A stretch of DNA of 64,000 nucleotides from Candidatus Omnitrophota bacterium (lineage in GTDB: Bacteria > Omnitrophota > Gorgyraeia > JAZDFF01): the NCBI GenBank assembly GCA_043808095.1, contig JAZDFF010000011.1, positions 48,030-112,029 on the forward strand. Reading direction: 5' to 3'. The position numbers and the translations under genes were made by a program. Position 1 is the stretch's first letter. The number at the start of each line of letters is the position of its first letter. Below are positions 1,383 through 57,142 of the stretch, one piece after another. The notes beneath the pieces are model-generated. The model saw nothing but the letters and a program-made list of their open reading frames with translations, did not search any database and was not told where the DNA came from.

Positions 1383-1450
1383 TACCCCGACGCCCCGACG
1401 AAACGTCGGGGGTCGGGGTATCCCGACTGAAGCGAAGCGAAACGTCGGGA
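1383..1450. repeat. GC-rich nested hairpins of the CCCGACG-WWW-CGTCGGG family
   Basis: taccccgacgccccgacgaaacgtcgggggtcggggta is a roughly 17-bp-stem palindrome. A second hairpin, tcccgac...gtcggga, follows it. Confidence 0.7.
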
Positions 1451-5650: not shown

Positions 5651-6406
5651 TTATCTCTTTTCTTGAGAGGTTAGTCTTTGTTGCAGAAATTCCCTGAACT
5701 CCTGGGGATACTCTATCTTTGCCTTCCCGGCTGAGCATTTATCGATACTTTCGATAATCTTGGGTATCCTCTCATAAGGAATGCTGATCAATAATTTATC
5801 TTTTTCTACATTACAGAGTTTTCTGGCAGTATAGTCATAGAAAGACAAATTAACCTCACCCGTTAGTAATGGATAGATGATACTCAACCGACAGGTCGGG
5901 CCTCCGATCTTAATCTTAGGCATATTGCCGTCTATAAAGGTTGAAAGCGTAAGCAGCCGGCAGGCGCTTTCGGGATTAGAGATAAAGATTACTAATTGCG
6001 GCTTAAATTCGCATTTTTCCATCGGGGAGAGGACAAAATAGGACTTAGAGTTATCGCCAACGTCTTCCATCTGGGAAATGAGCTTATCCAGGGCTTCGTA
6101 TGAACAGAATAACTTTTCTCCTTCAACCACAAACTGCTTTACCATCTGAATGATTTTGGGGTCTTTAAAATCGTAAAAACCCAAATGCCAGCCGGCCCCG
6201 AAACAGGCATTCGTGTCTTTGGCTATCTGAAGGGTCTCGCCTTTTGCGGCATCCAATATTGCCCGGCAGATGCGCAGCCTCTTATTACTATCTTTTAAAA
6301 ACGGTTCTTTCATACAGCTTAAGGCCACCGGGCTATATTCTAAATTAAGCAACTCTTTTAAAATTAATGAAAATTCCTGCCATTGTTTCTGCATAGTTAT
6401 CTCCAT
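5651..6406 (-). CDS. DUF169-like hypothetical protein
   Basis: 251 aa, soluble. Motifs NACFGAGWHLG and GGPTCRLS recall DUF169 (COG2043). The family assignment is from memory only. Confidence 0.4.
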   Translation of the reverse strand: MEITMQKQWQEFSLILKELLNLEYSPVALSCMKEPFLKDSNKRLRICRAILDAAKGETLQIAKDTNACFGAGWHLGFYDFKDPKIIQMVKQFVVEGEKLFCSYEALDKLISQMEDVGDNSKSYFVLSPMEKCEFKPQLVIFISNPESACRLLTLSTFIDGNMPKIKIGGPTCRLSIIYPLLTGEVNLSFYDYTARKLCNVEKDKLLISIPYERIPKIIESIDKCSAGKAKIEYPQEFREFLQQRLTSQEKR

Positions 6407-6500
6407 TAATGAGCAGACGACTTACGGAACGAAAGTGCGACGCCCTATTTCGCTAAAGCTTCCTACTACGCTAAAGCTTCGTAGGACAAGTCGTAGGGCT
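6407..6500 (-). promoter_or_regulatory. conserved structured 5' leader element, copy A (SD-proximal CTCATTAATGGAG plus an ACTTACG/CGTAAGT hairpin)
   Basis: Sense strand reads ...cgtaagtcgtctgctcattaatggagataactATG. It is homologous to 14548-14640 and 33515-33600. Confidence 0.55.
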
Positions 6501-6745
6501 GTTTCCGAGACCTTGGCGAAGGAAAACGTAAGTCGTAGCTCCGACGATACGTCGGAGCGCCTGCGCCTGCCTACTGGCAGGCGAGCATCCATACCGAAAA
6601 ACCGAGCTTCAAAACCTATGTACATAGTTTTGGCGGGTTTATCCCGTTACACCCAGAAAGCCCCGGTCTTAAGACTGGGATAAAATGGCAAATTAAAATT
6701 AACCATAGAAAATCCCCGTCCTTTATTGACAGGGTGTAATGGGGC

Positions 6746-7666
6746 TTACTTCTGTCGTGCTAGATATCTGAAGGCTGACAAGGCTGCCTTTGAGCCTTCT
6801 CCGGCTGCGATAATGATTTGTTTTTCCGGCATATCCGTAACATCGCCGGCTGCAAAAATTCCTGCGATATTAGTCTGGTTATAGCGGTCTATCTTGATTT
6901 CGCCGTATTGGTTTTTATCTATACCCTCGGCAAATTCCGAATTCGGAACAAGGCCGATTTCTACAAAAATCCCCTCAACCGGAATTGTCTCAACTTTACC
7001 TTCCCTTTTTATCTTGATGCCGCTTGCTAACTTCTGGCCGAGGACCGCTATCACCTGGCTATTATTAAGGACGGTTACTTTATTGCTTTCCTTAACCTTC
7101 TCCTGCATTATGGCGTCGCCGTTAAGGCCTGAGGCGCTATTTATAATATAAACGTGCCTGGCGATTCTTATTAATTGAAGCACGGCATCTAAGGCAGAGT
7201 TGCCGCCGCCGATAACCGCGACATCTTTTTGGCTAAACAACGGTCCGTCGCAGGTAGCGCAGTAGCTTAAGCCTTTATTCTTAAACTCACGTTCACCTGG
7301 TACATTAAGTTCTCTGGAGTGCTTACCCGAGGCAATAATCGCTGTCTTTGCTGTATAGGCGCCTTTATTGGTCTTAACGCTTACTATATTATTTACCTTT
7401 TTAATCTCAGCAACTATTTCGTTCTCTCTTAATTCAAGATTGTATTTACGCAGATGCTCTTCAAATTTAGCAGCTAACTCCGGACCGGTAATAAACTGAT
7501 AGCCGGTATAATTTTCTATATCACCGCTCCATGCAGCCTGACCGCCGATATCGCCGGTAATAACTAAGGTATTCAGCCTCTTACGTGCAGCGTAGACACT
7601 TGCGGTTATTCCCGCCGGACCTGCCCCGATAATAATCAAGTCATACATATCGTTTGTACTATTCAA
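6746..7666 (-). CDS. trxB: thioredoxin-disulfide reductase
   Basis: 306 aa with GAGPAG FAD motif, redox-active CATCDG and a second Rossmann motif. Confidence 0.9.
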   Translation of the reverse strand: MNSTNDMYDLIIIGAGPAGITASVYAARKRLNTLVITGDIGGQAAWSGDIENYTGYQFITGPELAAKFEEHLRKYNLELRENEIVAEIKKVNNIVSVKTNKGAYTAKTAIIASGKHSRELNVPGEREFKNKGLSYCATCDGPLFSQKDVAVIGGGNSALDAVLQLIRIARHVYIINSASGLNGDAIMQEKVKESNKVTVLNNSQVIAVLGQKLASGIKIKREGKVETIPVEGIFVEIGLVPNSEFAEGIDKNQYGEIKIDRYNQTNIAGIFAAGDVTDMPEKQIIIAAGEGSKAALSAFRYLARQK

Positions 7667-7679
7667 AAGTCATATTAAC

Positions 7680-7840
7680 AGCTTCCTTCGTTTTCGAAGC
7701 TCGTCTCTCGGTATGGATGCTCGTATCGATGCTCGTCTTTAGAGGCTCGTCCTTAAAATATTTTTCGAGCATCGAGCTTCCAGCTTCGATACTAGCATCT
7801 ACAACGTCAGACGAACATCTAGCATCTGGTATCTATAATC
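7680..7840. repeat. imperfect palindromic element of GATGCTCGT / CGAGCATC words, centred on TTAAAATATTTT
   Basis: gaagctcgtctctcggtatggatgctcgtatcgatgctcg ... cgagcatcgagcttccagcttcgatactagcatc. It lies between trxB and grx. Confidence 0.5.
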
Positions 7841-8110: not shown

Positions 8111-8222
8111 TTAAGGGTCAGGAAGGGATAGTAGGAATCAGTAAGGGTTAGTAGGGGAGTTTAAAATTTTTAACCTTTCTAACCCTTTCTATCCCCTGCT
8201 ATAACCTACTAACCCCTAAACG
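8111..8222. repeat. ~110-nt G-arm/C-arm palindromic element, copy 1
   Basis: A left arm of GGGWTAG words and a right arm of CTAWCCC words flank a TTTAAAATTTTT centre. A near-identical architecture occurs at 24800-24912. Confidence 0.7.
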
Positions 8223-8255
8223 TACTGTAATTGTTTTATGAAGTTTATAGGATGC

Positions 8256-8734: not shown

Positions 8735-9205
8735 TTATCCTCCTGCCTTTATTCTATGCGGTGTAAGATCGACTAATTCTTTCACCTCCATGACAATCAT
8801 ATATTGCGGCTTTGGTAAAAGCGCCTCGGGATGCCTGGGATGGCCTTTCTCGCCGCGAAGATTCTTGATTATCCTCTGCGAAATTCTACCGGTTATCTTT
8901 TCATCCCAGGTTTTGATAATTTCAGGACTAAACTCATCCTCCTTGATAATCTTGCCCCTACCCTTCAGGCAATAGCCTTTAAATTTATGTTCATCTACCG
9001 CCGTAATACTCATTTGAGGATTGTATTTTAAATTATCAAACGTCTTGCCCTGATAAAGATCGAGTAAATAAACAAATCCTTCGGGTTCTATCTTTACCAA
9101 TCCCTTACAGGCCTCATGCGGCATTCTGTCTCTACCAATAGTAGAAACAATGACGAAATTCTGATTAGAAAAGAAATTTATTATCTCTTCTGTCAGTTTT
9201 TTCAT
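8735..9205 (-). CDS. pyridoxamine-5'-phosphate-oxidase-fold (FMN-binding split barrel) protein
   Basis: 156 aa with the PNPOx-like pattern ...FVIVSTIGRDRMPH... Confidence 0.5.
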   Translation of the reverse strand: MKKLTEEIINFFSNQNFVIVSTIGRDRMPHEACKGLVKIEPEGFVYLLDLYQGKTFDNLKYNPQMSITAVDEHKFKGYCLKGRGKIIKEDEFSPEIIKTWDEKITGRISQRIIKNLRGEKGHPRHPEALLPKPQYMIVMEVKELVDLTPHRIKAGG

Positions 9206-9281
9206 TAAGAGAATCTGACTCCCTGCAACTAAATATTTGCCTCGGCTATCCAGCGGCCGTGGACATTACAGTCCTCAATGA

Positions 9282-9725
9282 CTATAAGCCTGCCTCGCTA
9301 ATCCAGGCACCGTGCAGATTACAGAGCTCTATTACGCTAAGTTTGCCACTTGAAACCTTAAGGTGGAGCGCAGCTGCTGGATTGAGCTTATCAGGAGTTA
9401 AGATTACCCTAGAAATAAACTCATTGTCTATATAAAAGTCGATGTGAATAATATAGTGCTTGGCTTCCATAGGGTGTTGAATCTGGCCAATTTTTACATG
9501 CACATCTTGACAATCCTCGGGGATTAAACTACATTTTTTTACAACAGTAATAATCGGCAGGTGCTTTTTCTCTAACTCGGTTAGATTATTTACATCCTGG
9601 GCAGTCTTTATAGCATCCCCTCTTTCTTCAAAAGCCGTCTTAGGTGCACCACACACAGGACATCTCTCTGGTGCACTACCATTTATAGATATAAACCCGC
9701 AAACCTTACATACATATCCTTTCAT
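9282..9725 (-). CDS. superoxide reductase (desulfoferrodoxin/neelaredoxin family) with an N-terminal rubredoxin-like Cys4 knuckle
   Basis: CKVCGF...CPVCG is followed by the EKKHLP (E-K-HVP) motif, an H..H..H.C..H ligand set and LCNLHG. Confidence 0.7.
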   Translation of the reverse strand: MKGYVCKVCGFISINGSAPERCPVCGAPKTAFEERGDAIKTAQDVNNLTELEKKHLPIITVVKKCSLIPEDCQDVHVKIGQIQHPMEAKHYIIHIDFYIDNEFISRVILTPDKLNPAAALHLKVSSGKLSVIELCNLHGAWISEAGL

Positions 9726-10907: not shown

Positions 10908-11060
10908 ATCTAACCCTCCCTCAATGAGCCCGCCATTGATGCAGTGGCGGGCGATTTGATCCCGCCCTTTTGGATATATAAAGATTGGGGTTAACAAACC
11001 AAAAGGGCGGGACAAATTCGGACAGCAATTTACGTTCGCTTCGCTTCGTAAATTGCGTCT

Positions 11061-11222: not shown

Positions 11223-11389
11223 TGCCTTAACTCTCCTTATTTACGCCTATCTCTTTTTCTTCTTTGCCTTTTTCTTTGGTTTTTTTACTCCGCAGCCACA
11301 GCATCCCATCTCTACACCTCCTCAAATGACCCCCTGCTGTTTCGTTTTGTTTCGCTTGCTTCACAAAACGGAACAAAACGACAGGGGGG

Positions 11390-11640
11390 AATTTGATCCC
11401 GACGTATCGTCGGGGTAAGTGGTTCAACTTCGCTCTGGTTCGACTTTGCTCTGGTTCGACTTTGCTCACCATTCGCCCTGAGCAAGCTCGCCAGAGGCGA
11501 GCGCGTCGAAGGGCTCACCATCCTTCGAATGCATTCGACTACACTCAACATTCGTCCTGAGCTTGTCGAAGGACGAACCATCCTGAGCGCAGTCGAAGGA
11601 TTCGGCCTAATCCCGACGTATCGTCGGGATGGCCTCACTT
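11390..11640. repeat. composite MITE-like element bounded by identical 20-nt palindromes (ATCCCGACGTATCGTCGGG), carrying GTCGAAGG/CCTGAGC repeats
   Basis: The terminal hairpins lie at 11396-11415 and 11610-11630. The interior has duplicated ctctggttcgactttgct and an ~75-nt block whose reverse complement recurs at 31880-31955. The right terminal hairpin encodes the last 7 aa of FprA. Confidence 0.65.
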
Positions 11641-12812
11641 ATCTTCTGGGCAAAATCCTTTCCAAATTCATAACAGCGCTTTAGCTCAACATCATCCGGA
11701 ACATATTTAAAGCTTAATCCGGACTGAGCTAATTCTATTCCCGACTCTTTAAAAATATCCTCGATTTCCTTAACAGCACCACCTGACCAGCCGTAAGAAC
11801 CGAAGGCAGCTGCAATTCTTTTCTGCGGACGCAGGCCCTTTAAAAATTCCAGGAACCCGGCAATAGAGGTGAGCATATCATTATCATGTGTCGATGAGCC
11901 GATGACAAAGCCTTTGGCATCCAACATCTCTTTGATTACCTCAGTGCGATCAGACGTGGCGATGTCAAAAAGTTTTACATCCAATCCCGCAGCTATAATG
12001 CCCTCGGCTATGTATCTAGCCATCTTTTCGGTTGCGCCCCACATCGTCTCATAGACAATTACGGCTTTGGGCTTAGTCTCATTCTTTGCCCACGATACAT
12101 ATGCATTTACAATCTTGGCCGGGTCTTTGCGCCAGATAATCCCGTGGCTGGGTGCGATCATCTTAATAGGGATATTCATCTTCTGCACTTCTTCGATCTT
12201 TTTTAAGACCAGGCTGCTTAACGGCCAAAGGATATTACCATAATATTTTGCCGCCTCATCCATCAGCGCAGCAGAATCTACCTCATCGTCAAATCTCTGG
12301 GAGGTAGCAAAATGCTGGCCAAAGGCGTCATTGGGCAAAAGAATCGCGTCTTCAACCAGATAACTAAACATACTATCCGGCCAATGCAACATAGGTGCCT
12401 CAAGAAAGGTTAAAGTCTTCTTACCTAATTTTAATTTGTCTTTGGTCTTTACAACTTGAAAATCCATATCTAAATAATAATGTTTAAATAAACCCTCTTT
12501 GCACTTTGCTGTGCCAAAGACCTTGGCCTTGGGACACAGTTTCAATATTGCCGGAAGCGCGCCTGAATGGTCTATCTCTACGTGGTTGGCAATGATATAG
12601 TCGATTTTTTCAGGTGCAATAATCTGTCTGATTCTTTCAATCATCTCTTCGGCAAAAGGTCCATAGACAGTATCCACCAAGGCAATCTTGTCATCTACTA
12701 TAAGATAGGCATTATAGGTGGTTCCTCTTTTTGTGGTATAGGTATGCCCATGGAAGTTCCTGACGTTCCAATCAATAGCGCCTACTCAATGAACCTGTTT
12801 ATAAATTTCCAT
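11607..12812 (-). CDS. flavodiiron protein (rubredoxin:oxygen/NO oxidoreductase, FprA) with an in-frame TGA at codon 9
   Basis: A metallo-beta-lactamase-like diiron domain (HVEIDH...) is followed by a flavodoxin domain. The ATG at 12810-12812 is preceded by GAAGGGG. TGA at 12786-12788 replaces the conserved Trp of the YWVGA motif. The ORF track therefore begins at a GTG at 12680. Confidence 0.7.
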
Positions 12813-14310: not shown

Positions 14311-14547
14311 CTATATGGCAATAACCTCTTTAACACTTGGCACTTCTTGTTTAATCAATTTCTCAATGCCCATCTTCAGAGTCATTGAACTCATCGGACA
14401 ACAGCCGCAGGCACCGGTAAGTTTTACCTTTACCGTCCCGTCATCTGTTACCTCAACAAGCTGGACATCCCCGCCATCAGCCGCAAGCATGGGCCTGATC
14501 TTATTTAAGGCTGCCTCTACTTTTTCTTTCATGTTTTCCTCCTTCAA
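14311..14547 (-). CDS. NifU-like (Nfu C-terminal domain) Fe-S cluster protein
   Basis: 78 aa: ...GGDVQLVEVTDDGTVKVKLTGACGCCPMSSMTLK... Confidence 0.8.
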   Translation of the reverse strand: MKEENMKEKVEAALNKIRPMLAADGGDVQLVEVTDDGTVKVKLTGACGCCPMSSMTLKMGIEKLIKQEVPSVKEVIAI

Positions 14548-14640
14548 TGAGTAGACAACTTACGGAGTTCGAAGAACGACGTAAGTTGTAGGACGAAGTC
14601 CGTCTGCGAATTCCTGCCTGCCGGCAGGCAGGGAACCCAG
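14548..14640 (-). promoter_or_regulatory. conserved structured 5' leader element, copy B
   Basis: + strand reads ctccttcaatgagtagacaacttacggagttcgaagaacgacgtaagttgtagg...ccgtctgcgaatt...gcctgccggcaggc. Confidence 0.55.
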
Positions 14641-14794
14641 CACTTATTTTTGTAACTGGGCTTGGGTTCTAAATTTAACTTTAAATTCGAATTAAACTTC
14701 TTTAATTTTAACCTAGCAAATTTTCAAAAATAAGTGCTGGGTAAATTCGGTCATAAAACTTACGTTTACTTCGTTCCGTAAGTTTTGACCTCAT

Positions 14795-15888: not shown

Positions 15889-16284
15889 CTATAATAAAGA
15901 CCCTACGCTGATACTTCGCAATTCCCTAACCACATATTTTTCGATTTTATTTATTTTTCTTCTTAAGGCGCAGGTTCTGGTATTAGGGCAAACAATCTTT
16001 TTTAGGAAACACTCGTTTAATTTAAACGGCCCCTGGAATATCTCTAATAAATCCATGATTAAAATTTTGTCGGCTGGGATATTAAGCGAAAACCCACCGC
16101 CTAATCCTTTATACGATTCAAGAACGCCTTTCTTATTTAGTACCTGAAGGATCTTTCTCAAAAACGGATTAGGTATTTTAAGGGCCTTGACTAATTGCCT
16201 GACCGAAACGACTTTATTTTTTGACTTGGCAAGATAGCAAAGAGCCCTGATTGCATAATCGGTATCTCTGGTTATTAATTTCAC
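15889..16284 (-). CDS. Rrf2-family transcriptional regulator (IscR-like, three Cys ligands)
   Basis: The N-terminus is a wHTH. KGLGGGFSL matches the Rrf2 hallmark, and CPNTRTC supplies cluster ligands. Confidence 0.8.
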   Translation of the reverse strand: MKLITRDTDYAIRALCYLAKSKNKVVSVRQLVKALKIPNPFLRKILQVLNKKGVLESYKGLGGGFSLNIPADKILIMDLLEIFQGPFKLNECFLKKIVCPNTRTCALRRKINKIEKYVVRELRSISVGSLL

Positions 16285-21616: not shown

Positions 21617-21702
21617 TTGAAGACTCCTTCAATGAGCACATAAATTACGCCTGTCTGGCCTCAGACAGGGACTTTTGCGCCTTTGCGGTATAAAAAAAGT
21701 AT

Positions 21703-24799: not shown

Positions 24800-24912
24800 T
24801 TTAAGGGTTAGGAAGGGGTAGTATGGGTTAGAAAGGGATAGTGGGGGAGTTTTTTAAAATCCCCCCTACTTACCCCTGCTGACCCTTCCTGTCCCTTGCT
24901 ATCCCCTAAACG
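24800..24912. repeat. ~110-nt G-arm/C-arm palindromic element, copy 2
   Basis: tttaagggttaggaaggggtagtatgggttagaaagggatagtgggggag TTTTTTAAAA tcccccctacttacccctgctgacccttcctgtcccttgctatcccctaaacg. Confidence 0.7.
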
Positions 24913-24935
24913 TCTTTTCTTTGAAGTTAGCGGTT

Positions 24936-26273
<1,338 letters not shown>

Positions 26274-27569: not shown

Positions 27570-27656
27570 CTTAACCTCCGATTTGCTGTATTTTTTCTTC
27601 TGTCTGCAAATCGTCCCGAGTCCCGACGTAACGTCGGGACGAGGGACAATTATACC

Positions 27657-28696: not shown

Positions 28697-31600
28697 TTAC
28701 TCTTTTTTCTCTTTCTTTTCAAGAATTATTTTTGCAGCAATCTCGGCAGGAACCTGGTTGTAGCGGTCAAAATGCATGGAACAACTGGCCCGGCCGCTGC
28801 TTAGGGAGCGGAATGCCGCCGCATAACCAAACATCTCGGCAAGAGGCGCCTCAGCATAAATAATCTTCTGATTGGCCTTAGTTTCTATATTTAGGATTTT
28901 GCCTCTGCGCTGGCAGATATTGCCCACGATATTATTCGCATATTCCTCGGGGGTAGTAACCTCAAAAAGCATGCACGGCTCCAGTAATATCGGATTTCCC
29001 TTCATAAAAGCCTCTTTAAAACCAAGGATTGCCGCCATCCTGAAGGCCAATTCCGAAGAATCTACCTCATGAAAAGAACCGTCCACCAGATCAACCTTTA
29101 CGTCCACAACCGGAAATCCTGCATACGCGCCTTTTTGTATCGCTTCTTTTACGCCTTTTTCTACTGCCGGGATAAATGACTTGGGAATCGCCCCGCCCCG
29201 TATACTATCGATAAATTCCAGGCCCTTGCCTGATTCACCCGGTGCAATCTCCATAACCACATGTCCGTATTGGCCCCTTCCGCCTGATTGTTTGATGTAT
29301 TTGCCTTCGGCACTTGCCTGGCTGGTTATAGTCTCTTTGTAGGCCACCTTAGGCTGGCCTACAATAGCATCAACATTAAATTCGTTTTTGAGCCTGTCAA
29401 CGATAATTTCAAGGTGCAGCTCTCCCATGCCGGTTAAAAGGGTCTCTTTAGTCTCAAGGTCTGACTGGACAATAAATGTCGGGTCCTCTTCCGCTAGCCT
29501 GCCCAGGCCTCTGCCTAATTTGTCCTGGTCCTGGCGTGTCTTGGGTTTGATGCTTAAGGACACTACCGGTGTGGCAAACTGCATCTTCTCAAGCAGGATG
29601 GGATTATCAGAGTCGGAAAGAGTATCTCCGGTTGAGGTATTACTCAGGCCTACGGCCGCGACAATCTCTCCGGCAAAGGCGTATTCGATATTCGTCTTCT
29701 GATTTGCATGCATGCGCACGATGCGCGATACCCTTTCTTTTTTATCCTTGGTGACATTTAAGACATATGAACCGGCAACGAGCACACCGGAGTAAATCCT
29801 TACATAGACCAGGTTCCCGATATGCGGGTCAGCCTGTAATTTAAAGGCTAAGGCACAAAACGGCCCTTTATAATCAGGCAGTCTCTCCAGGGGCTTTTCA
29901 GGATCCTGCGGGTCGCTTCCTTTTACGGGAGGTAAATCTTTTGGCGACGGCAGGAAATTTAGTATGGCATCAAGCAGTTTCTGCACGCCCTTATTTTTAA
30001 GCGCGGTCCCGCATACCACGGGAACCATCTTATTTGCAATCGTTTCCCTTCTTATCGCCGCTATCAAATCTTGCTGGCTAATTGAACCTTCGGCCTCAAG
30101 GTGTTTCTTCATTAAAGCCTCGTCAAGGCTAGCCACCTTTTCAACAATCGCATGACGAGTCTGTCGGGAAATTTCTTTAAATTCTTCAGGGATATCTTCT
30201 ACCGTAAACTCTTTTCCCTGGGATTCTTCATTAAAAATATAGGCCTTCATTTCTAATACATCGATAACACCGCGGAAATTTGCCTCTGCCCCCATCGGGA
30301 TTACAACCGGAGCCACATTAGCAGCCAGACTATGCTCCATGCCTTTTAAAACGGCGAAATAATCCGCGCCCAGCCGGTCCATCTTATTAATAAAGGCAAT
30401 CTTGGGAACGTTGTATTTGTCTGATTGGCGCCAGACTGTCTCTGTTTGAGATTCCACGCCGTTTACGGCATCAAAAACCGCGACTGCACCGTCTAAAACG
30501 CGCAAGCTCCTTTCAACCTCCACAGTAAAATCAACATGGCCTGGAGTATCGATGATGATGATACGATGGTCTTTCCAGAAACAGGTGGTTGCTGCGGCAG
30601 TAATAGTAATGCCTCTTTCCTGTTCTTGTTTCATCCAGTCCATCTGGGCCTTGCCTTCATGGACCTCGCCGATTTTATGGGTCTTTCCGGTGTAAAATAG
30701 AATCCTTTCGCTTAAAGTAGTCTTACCCGCATCAATATGGGCTATGATCCCGATGTTCCTGGTTCTGTCGATGTCAATTTCAGGAGTGGCAGATAGAAGG
30801 TCTTTGGGTTTATGCTCCCGGATTTCTTCTGCTTCGGGGGTAGGCTTCGCCTCCTCTTCTTTAGCAGGCGCTTGTTTCTCGGCTGGTTTTTCTTCAGCGG
30901 GCTCTTTTATGGCTGGAGGCTCTTCGACTGGCTCTTTAATTTCCTCAGCAGGCTTTTCTTCAGGAACTACCGGAGGAGGCTCTTCAATTTTGGGACTAGC
31001 AGGCGGTTCTTGCGGCAGTGCCTCCTTTACTTCCTGCTCTTCGGATCTTATTGGTGAACCTGCCTCGATTAACTGCATCTTCAGGCGGATTCTTTCCTCA
31101 TTTACCGCCTTAAGCTGTTTTTCGGCCGTCTCTAATTCTTTCTCAAGTTCGGTATACTCCTCATTCAACCTCTCAAAATCTTTCTTGGGAACCCATTCGC
31201 TCTCTTTCTGCTTTCTCTCAAGCGAATATGCGGTATCTGCGTGTTTTTGCGCCTCCTCAGTGAGTTTTTCTATCTTAAGGTTTAACTTCAGGATATCATT
31301 AGCCAGTTTACGGTTTTGTTCTTCGGATAATTTTAGTTTTTCTTTAAAAAATACCAACTCCTGATTTAAATTTACGTTTTTATCAAAGACAGCTAATAAT
31401 TCCTTTCCCTTTTCTCTTAATTTTTCGGAAACCTCAGCGCTCTCCTGTTTGACCTTACCTAATAACTCTTCGTCCTTTTTAACCCATTCATCGCGTTTGA
31501 TTAATTTCTCTAATAAATCCGCCTTGGCATTTTGGACTTCCTCGAGTTCTCTTTTCTCTGCCTCCTGAGCCAATCTTAAATTCTCAATCTCGTTTCTTAA

Positions 31601-31771
31601 GGAAGATGCCTCTTCCTGCAGAGTCAGTATTCTTTGGGCCCGCGTATCCATCTCCTGCGGCCGGGGAATACGAGTGGCCTTCTTCTTTACTGGGGGCTCG
31701 CTGCCCAGTAATAGCCCATAACCAATAAGCACAATTCCGCCAAATGCTAAAATAACAATCGCAATAAACAT
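28697..31771 (-). CDS. elongation factor G paralog with a ~330-aa N-terminal extension (TM helix, coiled coil, Pro/Glu/Lys-rich linker)
   Basis: The C-terminal ~690 aa is full-length EF-G: [17 protein letters not shown] and NKMD motifs, then domains II-V. The N-terminus starts with [23 protein letters not shown], followed by E/K heptad coiled coil and PEPK-like repeats. Confidence 0.8.
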
Positions 31772-31859: not shown

Positions 31860-31975
31860 TCGACTTGGCTCTGGATGGTTCGCGAGAGATGGTGAGTCCT
31901 TCGACGCGCTCGCCTTTGGCGAGCTTGCTCAGGGCGAATGGTGAGCAAAGTCGAACCAGAGCACCGCCGAACTAA
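31860..31975. repeat. inverted partial copy of the MITE-like element
   Basis: gatggtgagtccttcgacgcgctcgcctttggcgagcttgctcagggcgaatggtgagcaaagtcgaaccagagc is the reverse complement of 11445-11520, with 2-3 mismatches. Confidence 0.75.
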
Positions 31976-33514: not shown

Positions 33515-33600
33515 ATTTCCCTCCTTTTAATGAGCAGACGACTTACGGAGTCGAAGACGACGTAAGTCGTAGGCCTAAAAGGCCGTCTGCGAATTAATCC
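33515..33600 (-). promoter_or_regulatory. conserved structured 5' leader element, copy C
   Basis: + strand reads ccctccttttaatgagcagacgacttacggagtcgaagacgacgtaagtcgtaggcctaaaaggccgtctgcgaatt. Confidence 0.55.
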
Positions 33601-33724
33601 CGAAGCCTGCGCAGAAAATTTCTTGCGAAATTTTCAAGCGTTTTGGCGAGGGATCTCAAGGTTAACTTATAACCTTATTTATTATATCACAATTTTACAG
33701 CAATTTTCAGGGCTTATTGATTTT

Positions 33725-42535: not shown

Positions 42536-43110
42536 GGGAGCCTTATAGTCTTGGTTTTAAAGATACGGCTTATAAAAGGGTCTTTAGCCTTTTTCTTTGC
42601 GGAAAAATCTTGCGGGCTTAAATTCGTTATATTGAATTCTCTGCCTGTATCCTTCTGCAATTCAGCGATAAGCCTCTGTAAACCCAGAACAGAGTGCGAA
42701 CCAATAGCCAGAATGTCAATATCGCTTGATGAATCCATTTTATTGGTTGCGTATGAGCCGAATATATATGCCTCTTTAATCCCCTTGATATTCCCAAATA
42801 TATCTTTAAGCCTTTTCTCTATGCCGTATGTCTTAAGGAAAATCTGGCGGTAATGCTCTAAAATCGGGTTATCCTTGGCAAGAAAGAAATACCTTTCTTT
42901 CCCGCGGAATTCGCTCTTTAAAAGACCGTTTTTTTCGAATTCCTTAAGCTTGGCCTCGGTGTTTTTGGGATCTAACTCTAAAATCCTTGCCAGTTCGTTA
43001 ATGTATGCTTGAGCATCCGAATTAAGAAAAAAGTAATCCAGCAGTTTTATGGCCACCTTTGAACGTAGGGATATCATCTTTTCACCATGTTTATGGTAAT
43101 ATGTTACCAT
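42532..43110 (-). CDS. minimal nucleotidyltransferase (MNT) with an N-terminal wHTH; antitoxin partner
   Basis: GSYATN...DSSSDIDIL is a GS...DxD nucleotidyltransferase motif. The gene ends in ATGA, overlapping the HEPN gene. Confidence 0.6.
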   Translation of the reverse strand: MVTYYHKHGEKMISLRSKVAIKLLDYFFLNSDAQAYINELARILELDPKNTEAKLKEFEKNGLLKSEFRGKERYFFLAKDNPILEHYRQIFLKTYGIEKRLKDIFGNIKGIKEAYIFGSYATNKMDSSSDIDILAIGSHSVLGLQRLIAELQKDTGREFNITNLSPQDFSAKKKAKDPFISRIFKTKTIRLP

Positions 43111-43139
43111 AATCGATTATTTTGTCAAGAAGATATTTT

Positions 43140-43430
43140 GGGGGTGGGCAGGCGCAACAAAGTATCCTTCGACTCAGTTTACCCTGAGCTTGCCGAAGGG
43201 CTCAGGGTGGATTCTCCGCGCCCAAATGGTTAGTCTATCGAACCATAAATGACAACGCCCTTCGCTATCCAAGGCTTACTTTACCACATAATAAAATGGT
43301 GAGCAAGCCCTGAACGAAATGAAGGGCGCGTCGAACCACTCCCCTTCGTGGACGACCTTCGCAACACTTCGACAAGCTCAGTGCAAGCTTTTTTGGAGGA
43401 ATTTAAGAGCTATTGTTTAAGTCAGGAAGC
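43140..43430. repeat. MITE-family repeat block (GTCGAAGG / CCCTGAGC...GCTCAGGG hairpins)
   Basis: tccttcgactcagtttaccctgagcttgccgaagggctcaggg ... ggtgagcaagccctgaacgaaatgaagggcgcgtcgaacc. Confidence 0.65.
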
Positions 43431-43437
43431 AGAGAGA

Positions 43438-44517
43438 TTACTTGAAGAAATGTCTGGTTCTCAAGCATACTCTCACTAACATTAACATAACTGGCACTTC
43501 AATCAGCACTCCAACAACAGTTGCAAGAGATGCCCCAGAAGATAACCCAAAAAGCATCGCTGATGTGGCAATGGCAACTTCAAAGTGATTACTCGCCCCT
43601 ATCAATGCCGAAGGAGCTGCATCCACGTATGGTAATTTTAACCATTTTGCTAATCCGTATGTTAAGGCAAAAATTAAACAAGTCTGAATAAAAAGTGGTA
43701 TTGCTATTAAAAATATCACCTGAGGTTGTTTTATAATCAATCCCCCCTTAAACGAAAATAAAAGGATAAGCGTAACAAGTAACGCCCCTATAGAGACTGG
43801 CGTTAAATAATGAAGAAATTTTTCTTCAAACCACTTCAACCCTTTTTTGGCAATTATATATTTTCTAGAATGATACCCTAAGAAAAGCGGCAAACCCACA
43901 TAGATAATGACTGATAATACTATTGTCTGCCAGGGAATAGGCATTTTGTTCACCCCTAAAAGCCACCCTCCTAAAGGCGCATAAAGAAATAACATTGTAA
44001 GTGAGTTTATCGCTACCATAACAAGAGTATGCCCATCGTTACCTCTTGCTAAATGACCCCAAACAAGAACCATAGCTGTGCAAGGAGCAATCCCGAGCAA
44101 TATACAGCCAGCAATATAAGAACGGAAAAGCTCAACCTGAGCACCGCCCTTAATGATCTCAACGCCAGGAAGCCAACCCTTAAAGACAAAGCCAAGAAAA
44201 AAAGTGGCAATAGCGAGCATGGTAAAAGGCTTGATACACCAGTTTACAAACAAAGTAAGCAATACTGGCTTAGGCGTCTTTCCCGCTTTAACAACCTCGG
44301 CAAAATCAATCTTCACCATAATCGGATACATCATAAAGAATAGACATATCGCAATGGGAATGGATACTTGATATATCGAAAATTGATCAAGCGTAACAGC
44401 CATCTGAGGAAATAGCTTACCAAGAATTATGCCAAGTCCGATGCAAAGGACTACCCATCCGGTGAGATATTTTTCAAAAAAACCTAATTTTCGTTCTTCG
44501 TAGATAACTCGCTCCAT
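43438..44517 (-). CDS. acr3: arsenite efflux permease, ACR3 family
   Basis: 359 aa with a BASS/ACR3 fold. The ACR3-typical proline-rich TM pattern is present. Confidence 0.8.
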
Positions 44518-56849: not shown

Positions 56850-56854
56850 TGTGT

Positions 56855-56980
56855 TCTCTCTACTGGCCTACGAGGTTAGCTGTCGGGCTCGGGTCGAGCA
56901 ACCCTAATCTGATATTACTAGATATTCGCCCCAAGATCACAACTTGATCAGATTCTTGGGTTCCCCGCTATCTTTTTAGG
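56855..56980 (-). promoter_or_regulatory. cyclic-di-AMP (ydaO/kimA-type) riboswitch in the kdp leader
   Basis: Minus strand reads ...gcGGGGAACCcaag...CGACCCGAGCCCGACAGCTAACCTCGTAGGCcagt. This matches the conserved ACCCGACAGCUAACCUCGUA 3' signature of the ydaO class. Confidence 0.65.
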
Positions 56981-57142
56981 TTTGAAATATCACCCAAAAA
57001 GAGATTAAGCTTATTGAAATTAAATATAGCGCAATTAATCCTTTTGTCAAGTTTGATCACTCGCTAGTTAAGCAAGATGTTCACGCTCAAAACGCCCTGA
57101 AGTGACTCACCATAAAATACTCTCTCTAAACAGGCAGGACAA

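Follow-up and report, generated by a model that had tools for sequence, protein, structure and literature searches.

Palindromic repeats in the window

The stretch of DNA analysed here, hereafter the window, covers 64,000 nucleotides of an Omnitrophota genome, with a GC content of 41% and nearly all genes on the minus strand. Its most conspicuous small features are copies of a GC-rich palindrome, CCCGACG-WWW-CGTCGGG, all of which lie between open reading frames or at one ORF end. Domain assignment identifies the adjoining genes as CBS, DUF169, thioredoxin-reductase-like, rubrerythrin, flavodiiron (FDP), DUF47/PhoU-like and Pit genes, bearing out the neighbours named in a preliminary description of the sequence (CBS, DUF169, rubredoxin-rubrerythrin and DUF47-Pit). 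Three of the five copies fall within an oxidative-stress gene cluster at 5.6-12.7 kb, and an Rrf2-family regulator is encoded at 15889-16284. Other GC-rich hairpin repeats crowd the intergenic regions that carry the palindromes. The relevant features are listed below.

1383-1420, no strand assigned: extended hairpin around copy 1, with outer arms CCCCGAC/GTCGGGG
1393-1411, no strand assigned: copy 1, CCCCGACG-AAA-CGTCGGGG, with perfect 8-bp arms
1421-1450, no strand assigned: long-loop variant, TCCCGAC-16 nt-GTCGGGA, defined by arm pairing and folding
6538-6558, no strand assigned: variant copy, GCTCCGACG-ATA-CGTCGGAGC, with 9-bp arms and a compensated T..A outer core pair
11245-11650, minus strand: composite block of about 400 nt between FDP and rubredoxin, with two palindromes, GC-rich repeat units, a long hairpin and a 20-aa ORF
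11396-11414, no strand assigned: copy ATCCCGACG-TAT-CGTCGGG, its 19 nt identical to 11610-11628
11447-11522, no strand assigned: 76-nt repeat between two palindromes, 97% identical to 31888-31963, inverted
11610-11630, no strand assigned: copy ATCCCGACG-TAT-CGTCGGGAT, with 9-bp arms
27613-27647, minus strand: outer frame hairpin GTCCC..GGGAC in the Pit-DUF47 spacer, with the palindrome at its apex
27620-27640, no strand assigned: copy GTCCCGACG-TAA-CGTCGGGAC, with 9-bp arms

A census with the pattern CCCGACGWWWCGTCGGG, allowing up to two mismatches and using 100 dinucleotide-preserving shuffles as the null, finds five matches in the 64 kb. The shuffle mean is 0.01, and none of the 100 shuffles reaches five. 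Four matches are exact (1394-1410, 11398-11414, 11612-11628 and 27622-27638), with the loop AAA at 1394, TAT at 11398 and 11612, and TAA at 27622. The fifth core, at 6540-6556, reads TCCGACGATACGTCGGA; both of its outermost positions are changed in a compensating manner, so the palindrome stays perfect. With four exact copies and one compensated copy against 0.01 by chance, the recurrence noted earlier is genuine. The differences in loop and outer pair among the window copies suggest that these are old copies, or copies held by pairing constraints, and not the outcome of recent bursts.

The structural details originally given for these sites require some adjustment. Perfect 8-bp arms, ascribed to every site, do exist, but the real lengths range from 7 to 9 bp; at 11398-11414, the perfect arms are 7 bp and the eighth pair is T.G. 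The hairpin at 1383-1420 is nested, with one family arm pair wrapping a second; as RNA, it forms 17 bp of stem interrupted by a single bulge (-33.3 kcal/mol). The 16-17-bp extended stem described there is real, but the fifth site is better represented by 27613-27647, whose stem has 5+9 pairs and a 2x2 internal loop and falls short of 16-17 pairs. Similarly, a family arm is present at 1436-1450, but it forms the 3' arm of the long-loop hairpin 1421-1450 and is not a half-site. The loop of that hairpin holds GAAGCGAAGCGAAA, which also fills a separate hairpin at about 11030-11050. For single palindrome units, the folding energy is -12 to -17 kcal/mol, far below that of shuffled sequences, and the window hairpins as a whole span -12 to -33 kcal/mol as RNA, with z-scores of -3.4 to -6. 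The copy at 27620-27640 equals the 21-nt cross-phylum consensus described below.

The copies show no regular placement relative to genes. From a palindrome, the nearest start codon further along lies about 53, 86, 134 or 225 nt away, and the fixed spacing that the preliminary description proposed looking for is not seen. Its placement of all copies in 5' or intercistronic regions fails for 11612-11628, which lies within the last seven codons of the flavodiiron ORF. On the minus strand, the 1383-1450 cluster follows closely after a terminator-like hairpin at 1470-1489 and precedes the CBS start by about 215 nt or more. Terminator calling in the window selects no palindrome copy, and none has a T-tract; the terminator-like sites at 1470-1489 and 6714-6734 are hairpins separate from the palindromes. 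An Rfam scan of the window at gathering score gives no match at any palindrome. The sole match at that score is a c-di-AMP (ydaO-type) riboswitch at 56851-57021 on the minus strand (71.8 bits).

The copy at 6538-6558 stands where a leader-type repeat module, here preceding the DUF169 gene, has its variable small hairpin. This module is found on the minus strand at 6401-6560, 14539-14650, 21624-21690 and 33522-33610, and more weakly at 1838, 5451 and 37783. It consists of AATTCGCAGACG, a variable small hairpin, TACGACTTACG-loop-CGTAAGTCGT and then CTGCTCATTAA(A)GGAG, ending exactly at the Shine-Dalgarno sequence. It has no Rfam match, the genes that it precedes are unrelated to one another, and it also occurs in L137, L165, L174 and L185. 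In some relatives it sits between Pit and DUF47, a position at which most relatives have a 15-25-nt spacer. The module may be an undescribed cis-regulatory leader or else a mobile hairpin element, one that adjoins the Shine-Dalgarno sequence or brings it along. Also upstream of the DUF169 gene, at 6612-6631, lies a single-copy, AT-rich, near-perfect palindrome, AAACCTATGTACATAGTTTT, which looks more operator-like than the GC-rich palindromes.

Several further features of the window were recorded. An EF-G-like ORF of 1024 aa (28697-31771, minus strand) has its EF-G domains from about residue 336, and the N-terminal extension before them, about 335 aa long, matches nothing in Pfam. A long hairpin at 24800-24945 shows a strong purine/pyrimidine skew, with GGGGATAGCAAGGGACAGG... 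paired with ...CCCTTTCTAACCC, and a related pyrimidine-rich repeat lies at 8164-8223.

Comparison with relatives

Two sites can be compared with their orthologues in related genomes. For the Pit-DUF47 spacer, a metagenome scan supplied 80 loci with Pit 73-86% identical, and both genes could be placed in 74. Of these, 54 have a spacer of 30 nt or less, 8 have one of 31-60 nt and the spacer of the other 12 exceeds 60 nt; in the window, it is 87 nt. Short spacers comprise a stop codon, a Shine-Dalgarno sequence and an ATG, with no hairpin, and the long ones carry assorted hairpin modules. The palindrome is absent from this spacer in all 74 scorable relatives, and the 737 kb of Pit-relative loci contain no copy with up to two mismatches. 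L145 and L210 keep the outer frame GTCCC..GGGAC seen in the window, followed by a second small hairpin before the Shine-Dalgarno sequence, and the apex of their frame holds unrelated AT-rich fillers where the window has the palindrome. Since the frame is common to these loci and its fillers differ, the palindrome appears to be the newest layer, set at the apex of an older inserted hairpin. The outer arms of 27613-27647 accordingly belong to a separate frame hairpin, and the interpretation of this structure as a self-nested copy was rejected.

The FDP-rubredoxin junction provides the second comparison. The window's FDP ORF matches, at 100% identity, an NCBI protein of a Candidatus Omnitrophota MAG. 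In the window, the last residues of the FDP ORF, IPTIRRD, are encoded by the palindrome at 11610-11630, and the stop codon at 11607-11609 follows directly. The protein thus ends in ...KDFAQKISEAIPTIRRD, and about 400 nt lead up to the rubredoxin start. L212 has the same gene order and a 94% identical FDP, which ends in ...KDFASKMV; there, the rubredoxin ATG lies 15 nt after the stop codon. The spacer is 19 nt in L213/L214, an Omnitrophota genome with the entire Rrf2-DUF3786-FDP-rubredoxin-rubrerythrin cluster, and 53 nt in L215, with no palindrome in either. The composite block 11245-11650 is therefore missing in L212, L213/L214 and L215, where spacers range from 15 to 53 nt. A 20-codon ORF inside the block, MGCCGCGVKKPKKKAKKKKR (11247-11309, minus strand), has a strong GAGGAGG Shine-Dalgarno sequence and is likewise absent from L212.

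The palindrome is also rare in the remaining DNA of these genomes. The 38 kb of L213-L215 contain no copy with up to two mismatches, and L212 has one degenerate copy, CCCCGACGTTACATCGGGG, just before the Shine-Dalgarno sequence of an ammonium-transporter gene. This is the single degenerate copy in about 790 kb of relatives' DNA in all. On this evidence, the copies at both comparable sites are additions specific to the window's lineage. In L212, spacers of the same oxidative-stress cluster (1533-1765, 2741-2950, 7550-7685 and 9105-9283) contain a different repeat family, made of AAACGCAGAT...ATCTGCGTT blocks, which suggests that each lineage has its own set of intergenic repeats.

Distribution across phyla

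An exact motif scan of GTDB species representatives yields at least 118 blocks of up to 8 kb, whose matches were divided by locus GC into those below 0.56 (at least 90) and those at 0.56 or higher (at least 32). The two groups behave differently. Among the 32 GC-rich matches listed, all eight W-loops are about equally frequent, 25 lie inside long ORFs, and 50% have at least one further complementary outer pair; these matches are as chance would give. The low-GC matches are a real repeat family. Among the 90 listed, the loop is TTA/TAA in 61 and TAT/ATA in 18, an additional eighth Y-R pair is present in 80%, and 76% are intergenic. Base composition, by our estimate, predicts about ten matches across all low-GC genomes of the collection, so a count of at least 90 is not due to chance.

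The consensus is g-Y-CCCGACG-TTA-CGTCGGG-R-c, with a TWA loop when written for the family. Counting 87 oriented copies by position reveals no asymmetric flank, tag or tail, only the symmetric Y..R pair and a weak g..c beyond the core. The same blocks hold at least 16 additional near-copies, including the T..A variant of the window's 6538 copy in L046 and L128. By label, the low-GC matches listed fall into Omnitrophota (about 13 loci), Patescibacteria/CPR (about 37), Elusimicrobiota/Endomicrobiia (7), Planctomycetota (about 11) and a few others, a phylum spread that represents a sample of matches and carries MAG labels that may be imperfect. The family is therefore patchy: nearly absent from close relatives and present in several other phyla.

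Copies in other genomes have no consistent relation to genes or transcription. The nearest ORFs encode diverse housekeeping functions. For the low-GC matches listed, the asymmetric loop shows no bias with respect to flanking-gene direction (8 vs 12), and divergent spacers are not avoided, with 9 of 49 classifiable intergenic copies located in them. T4+ tails follow 21% of these matches and 28% of control positions, which shows no enrichment; together with the lack of terminator calls in the window, this led to rejection of the palindrome as an intrinsic terminator. A scan of viral contigs finds 12 single matches, most in contigs of at least 55% GC, with no TTA/TAA bias (only 3 of 12), and thus offers no hint of a phage vector. 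Among the 150 ORFs closest to copies in other genomes, no family of transposases is seen repeatedly. All-against-all clustering of 1,302 ORFs likewise finds no recurrent RAYT (Y1 HUH transposase) or other transposase and no enriched neighbour; the Pfam scan in the window covered 20 ORFs. A full-text literature search found, within the collection covered, no paper containing the palindrome sequence, the ATTGCGAG..CGAAGCAAT repeat described below or such repeats in these phyla.

Nesting in hairpins, repeats and functional RNAs

The palindrome is frequently embedded in larger structures. For 27% of the low-GC matches listed, the flanks pair better than shuffled flanks (z < -2), so that the palindrome caps a longer hairpin. 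It also lies at the exact centre of ATTGCGAG..CGAAGCAAT repeats, empty copies of which occur in the same contigs, and is centred in CCTGAGC..GTCGAAGG units, a type present in the window at 11.4-11.6 kb. Both host repeat types recur in MAGs of several phyla, and within them, the palindrome often takes the form GAY-palindrome-RGA.

Functional RNAs serve as hosts as well. In two Omnitrophota MAGs, the palindrome forms the distal P3 helix of three c-di-GMP-I riboswitch aptamers, and two tandem aptamers differ only by inversion of the loop, ATA vs TAT. These aptamers (L018 4196-4279 and 4949-5032; L066 729-812) are missing the usual tetraloop-receptor nucleotides. One Shapirobacteria 23S rRNA gene (L128 4228-7688, minus strand, 3461 nt) contains three family hairpins, at 7522, 5031 and 4745. 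In model coordinates, the palindrome makes up the 152-178 helix of that rRNA and, at about 2150-2185, the apex, with one more in a 77-nt expansion. In a Saccharibacteria contig, a copy lies 6 nt upstream of the 16S 5' end.

Interpretation and alternatives

The palindrome is probably a REP-like short interspersed repeat of about 17-21 bp, with the consensus g-Y-CCCGACG-TWA-CGTCGGG-R-c, that spread by copying. That over 90 unrelated loci share the same 14-nt arms excludes convergence, and from this we infer a copying process. In the window's lineage, the palindrome was added to intergenic DNA; it tends to take up the centre or apex of pre-existing hairpins and repeats and has no fixed relation to promoters or gene function. 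Copying may have proceeded by trans-mobilisation, in which a putative nuclease or transposase would work on hairpin DNA in the manner of RAYTs on REPs, or by template switching or gene conversion between hairpins. The latter route would also account for compensated variants that keep the symmetry, and for flipped loops, with no need of selection. The cross-phylum spread may plausibly stem from horizontal transfer among lineages that share a habitat. When transcribed, a copy would form a very stable RNA hairpin and may incidentally stabilise or punctuate mRNA, as REPs do; any such effect would be a consequence and not the reason for the placement of the copy. Some observations weigh against this account: no mobilising enzyme turned up, and no transposase family recurs either in the ORFs nearest the copies or in the clustered ORFs; the heterogeneity of the window copies points to old or pairing-constrained copies; and the riboswitch and rRNA helices, along with the compensated T..A variant, also fit selection on an RNA hairpin.

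The preliminary description offered three other roles, as operators for a dimeric regulator, as RNA stability or processing hairpins, and as the termini of a GC-rich MITE family. Operators are suggested by the perfect inverted repeat of operator size, by the concentration of three of the five copies in the oxidative-stress cluster and by the nearby Rrf2 gene, whose product could be the dimeric factor acting over the oxidative-stress, CBS and Pit/DUF47 genes. This proposal is nonetheless highly improbable, because the relatives that share the cluster, including L213, have no copy in it, start-codon distances vary from 53 to 225 nt, one copy lies inside a coding sequence, and one cluster falls past a terminator. 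In other phyla, moreover, the motif occurs in convergent spacers, riboswitches and rRNA and beside unrelated genes, and within the window the AT-rich palindrome at 6612-6631 is the more operator-like sequence. Of the marks of an operator, orthologous conservation is lacking at the Pit-DUF47 and FDP-rubredoxin sites, and a fixed position relative to start codons is not seen. The MITE proposal, in which every copy is a terminal repeat, has very little probability as well. It draws on the identical 19-mers at 11396-11414 and 11610-11628, which are spaced by 214 bp and have about 195 nt of GC-rich repeat units between them. However, only 76 nt of this block (11447-11522) are demonstrably repeated, and the copy at 31888-31963 has no palindrome at its ends. 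This pair is the only one in the window that flanks GC-rich repeat DNA; the copies at 1393, 6538 and 27620 stand alone, and no palindrome accompanies the GC-rich repeats at 31.9 kb and 43.1-43.4 kb. Other genomes have the palindrome inside other repeats and not at their ends. Terminal inverted repeats around a conserved core with a target-site duplication, the definition of a MITE, are not what is found. What the evidence does favour is the wider notion underlying this proposal, namely repeats that arrived by insertion. The 76-nt repeat is itself built of CCTGAGC..GTCGAAGG-type hairpin units, which also occur in L029, L059 and L087 (MAGs of other phyla), and related units extend over 11415-11609 and 43100-43440 of the window.

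A hairpin that is chiefly a selected RNA module deserves more weight than these two, but is still unlikely. It would act with a conserved RNA-binding protein or RNase that recognises it, or as a plain stabiliser, and would have been taken up wherever a strong hairpin served a transcript: between cistrons, for stabilisation or processing, or as a helix of a riboswitch or an rRNA. The stability of the RNA folds agrees with such a role, as do the distal P3 helices, the 23S rRNA helices and the copy close to a 16S 5' end, the recurrence of the compensated T..A variant in several genomes, and the location of every window copy on the transcribed side of minus-strand gene strings. Against it, relatives that keep the same operons do not conserve the hairpin at orthologous positions, the asymmetric loop is not oriented with transcription, divergent spacers are occupied, terminator tails are absent, and the 1383-1450 cluster lies downstream of the hairpin at 1470-1489. 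The identical arms in so many loci would, in addition, still need a copying process. With no conserved copy at either orthologous site and near-absence from relatives, neither a conserved operator nor a conserved RNA signal is supported for these operons; the earlier suggestion of RNA stability or processing survives in the stable folds and in the helices of riboswitches and rRNA, and such an effect is possible as a side effect. A final, tentative alternative is that the palindrome, at 17-23 nt, specifically colonises or replaces hairpin apexes, either as an ultra-small element that spreads horizontally or as a hairpin recognised by a putative widespread nuclease or binding protein. Its targets, which we would likewise put forward only tentatively, would include other repeats, terminator stems, riboswitch P3 helices and rRNA helices across Omnitrophota, Patescibacteria, Elusimicrobiota and Planctomycetota. 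If correct, the palindrome would be a mobile module of hairpin apexes that crosses phyla, and neither the REP nor the MITE families described so far would offer a counterpart.

Under the preferred interpretation as a REP-like repeat, the palindromes of this genome are not to be taken for the signal of a regulon. They are marks of intergenic DNA that was recently remodelled, and in one case they rewrote the C-terminus of an annotated protein. Occurrence in MAGs labelled as several poorly known phyla, and nesting in repeats and functional RNAs, point to undescribed small-repeat dynamics in these streamlined genomes. Assembly breaks, ORF calling (through spurious peptides), models of riboswitches and rRNA, and possibly gene expression could be affected. 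Were a dedicated enzyme or hairpin-targeting mechanism to lie behind the palindrome, it would represent a new kind of minimal mobile DNA.

Comparison with known systems

GC-rich palindromic mini-elements are familiar from AT-rich organellar genomes, in the form of the GC clusters of yeast mtDNA, the PstI palindromes of Neurospora mtDNA and the double-hairpin elements of Allomyces mtDNA. Those elements occupy intergenic DNA and variable parts of rRNA genes and differ in presence or absence among relatives, and the mechanism that mobilises them is not known. The palindrome described here similarly occurs in intergenic DNA and rRNA and varies in presence between relatives. Unlike these organellar, eukaryotic elements, with which it has no sequence relationship, it resides in free bacterial genomes of several phyla. 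It resembles MITEs such as Correia/NEMIS in being non-autonomous and intergenic and in its capacity to be co-transcribed into hairpins; it differs in that the palindrome itself is the element and lacks both a target-site duplication and an internal segment enclosed by terminal inverted repeats.

The closest parallels lie in the REP, BIME and REPIN sequences of Proteobacteria, which are short, dispersed, mostly intergenic GC-rich hairpin palindromes whose RNA effects are thought to be secondary (PMC3116915; PMC3733652). Like them, the palindrome is GC-rich and hairpin-forming, is often clustered or paired, and sometimes lies in gene ends; in the window and among the low-GC matches listed, it is also dispersed and mostly intergenic. 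With 7-9-bp arms, a 3-nt loop and a length of 17-21 bp, it falls at the short end of the REP size range (about 20-40 bp), and its five copies plus one variant in 64 kb, together with the intergenic majority of the low-GC matches listed, agree with a dispersed extragenic repeat. Unlike REP/BIME/REPIN sequences, it is fully symmetric, is shorter and does not avoid divergent spacers. A REPIN system also has a cognate RAYT gene with the repeats on either side, and no RAYT recurs in the ORFs nearest the copies in other genomes or in the clustered ORFs. The GTAG- and CGTC-tagged REP superfamilies carry an unpaired GTAG or CGTC tetranucleotide at the stem end and a short CCA-like tail (PMC3733652). 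Neither the unpaired tag nor the CCA tail is present in the 87 oriented copies, and membership in the CGTC-tagged superfamily was rejected. Rickettsia palindromic elements (RPEs), which are related to CGTC REP families (PMC3733652), offer another parallel: the palindrome also lands in coding and RNA genes and becomes part of the product, as in the FDP C-terminus, the rRNA helices and the riboswitch P3. RPEs, unlike this element of about 20 bp, are 100-150 bp long and lineage-restricted. REP families, too, are mostly species- or genus-specific, whereas the same palindrome sequence is found in several phyla. Collectively, these comparisons place the palindrome as a new family within the known class of short interspersed palindromic repeats: its role in the window is ordinary, and what sets it apart is its perfect symmetry, its nesting at hairpin apexes and the occurrence of the same sequence across several candidate phyla.
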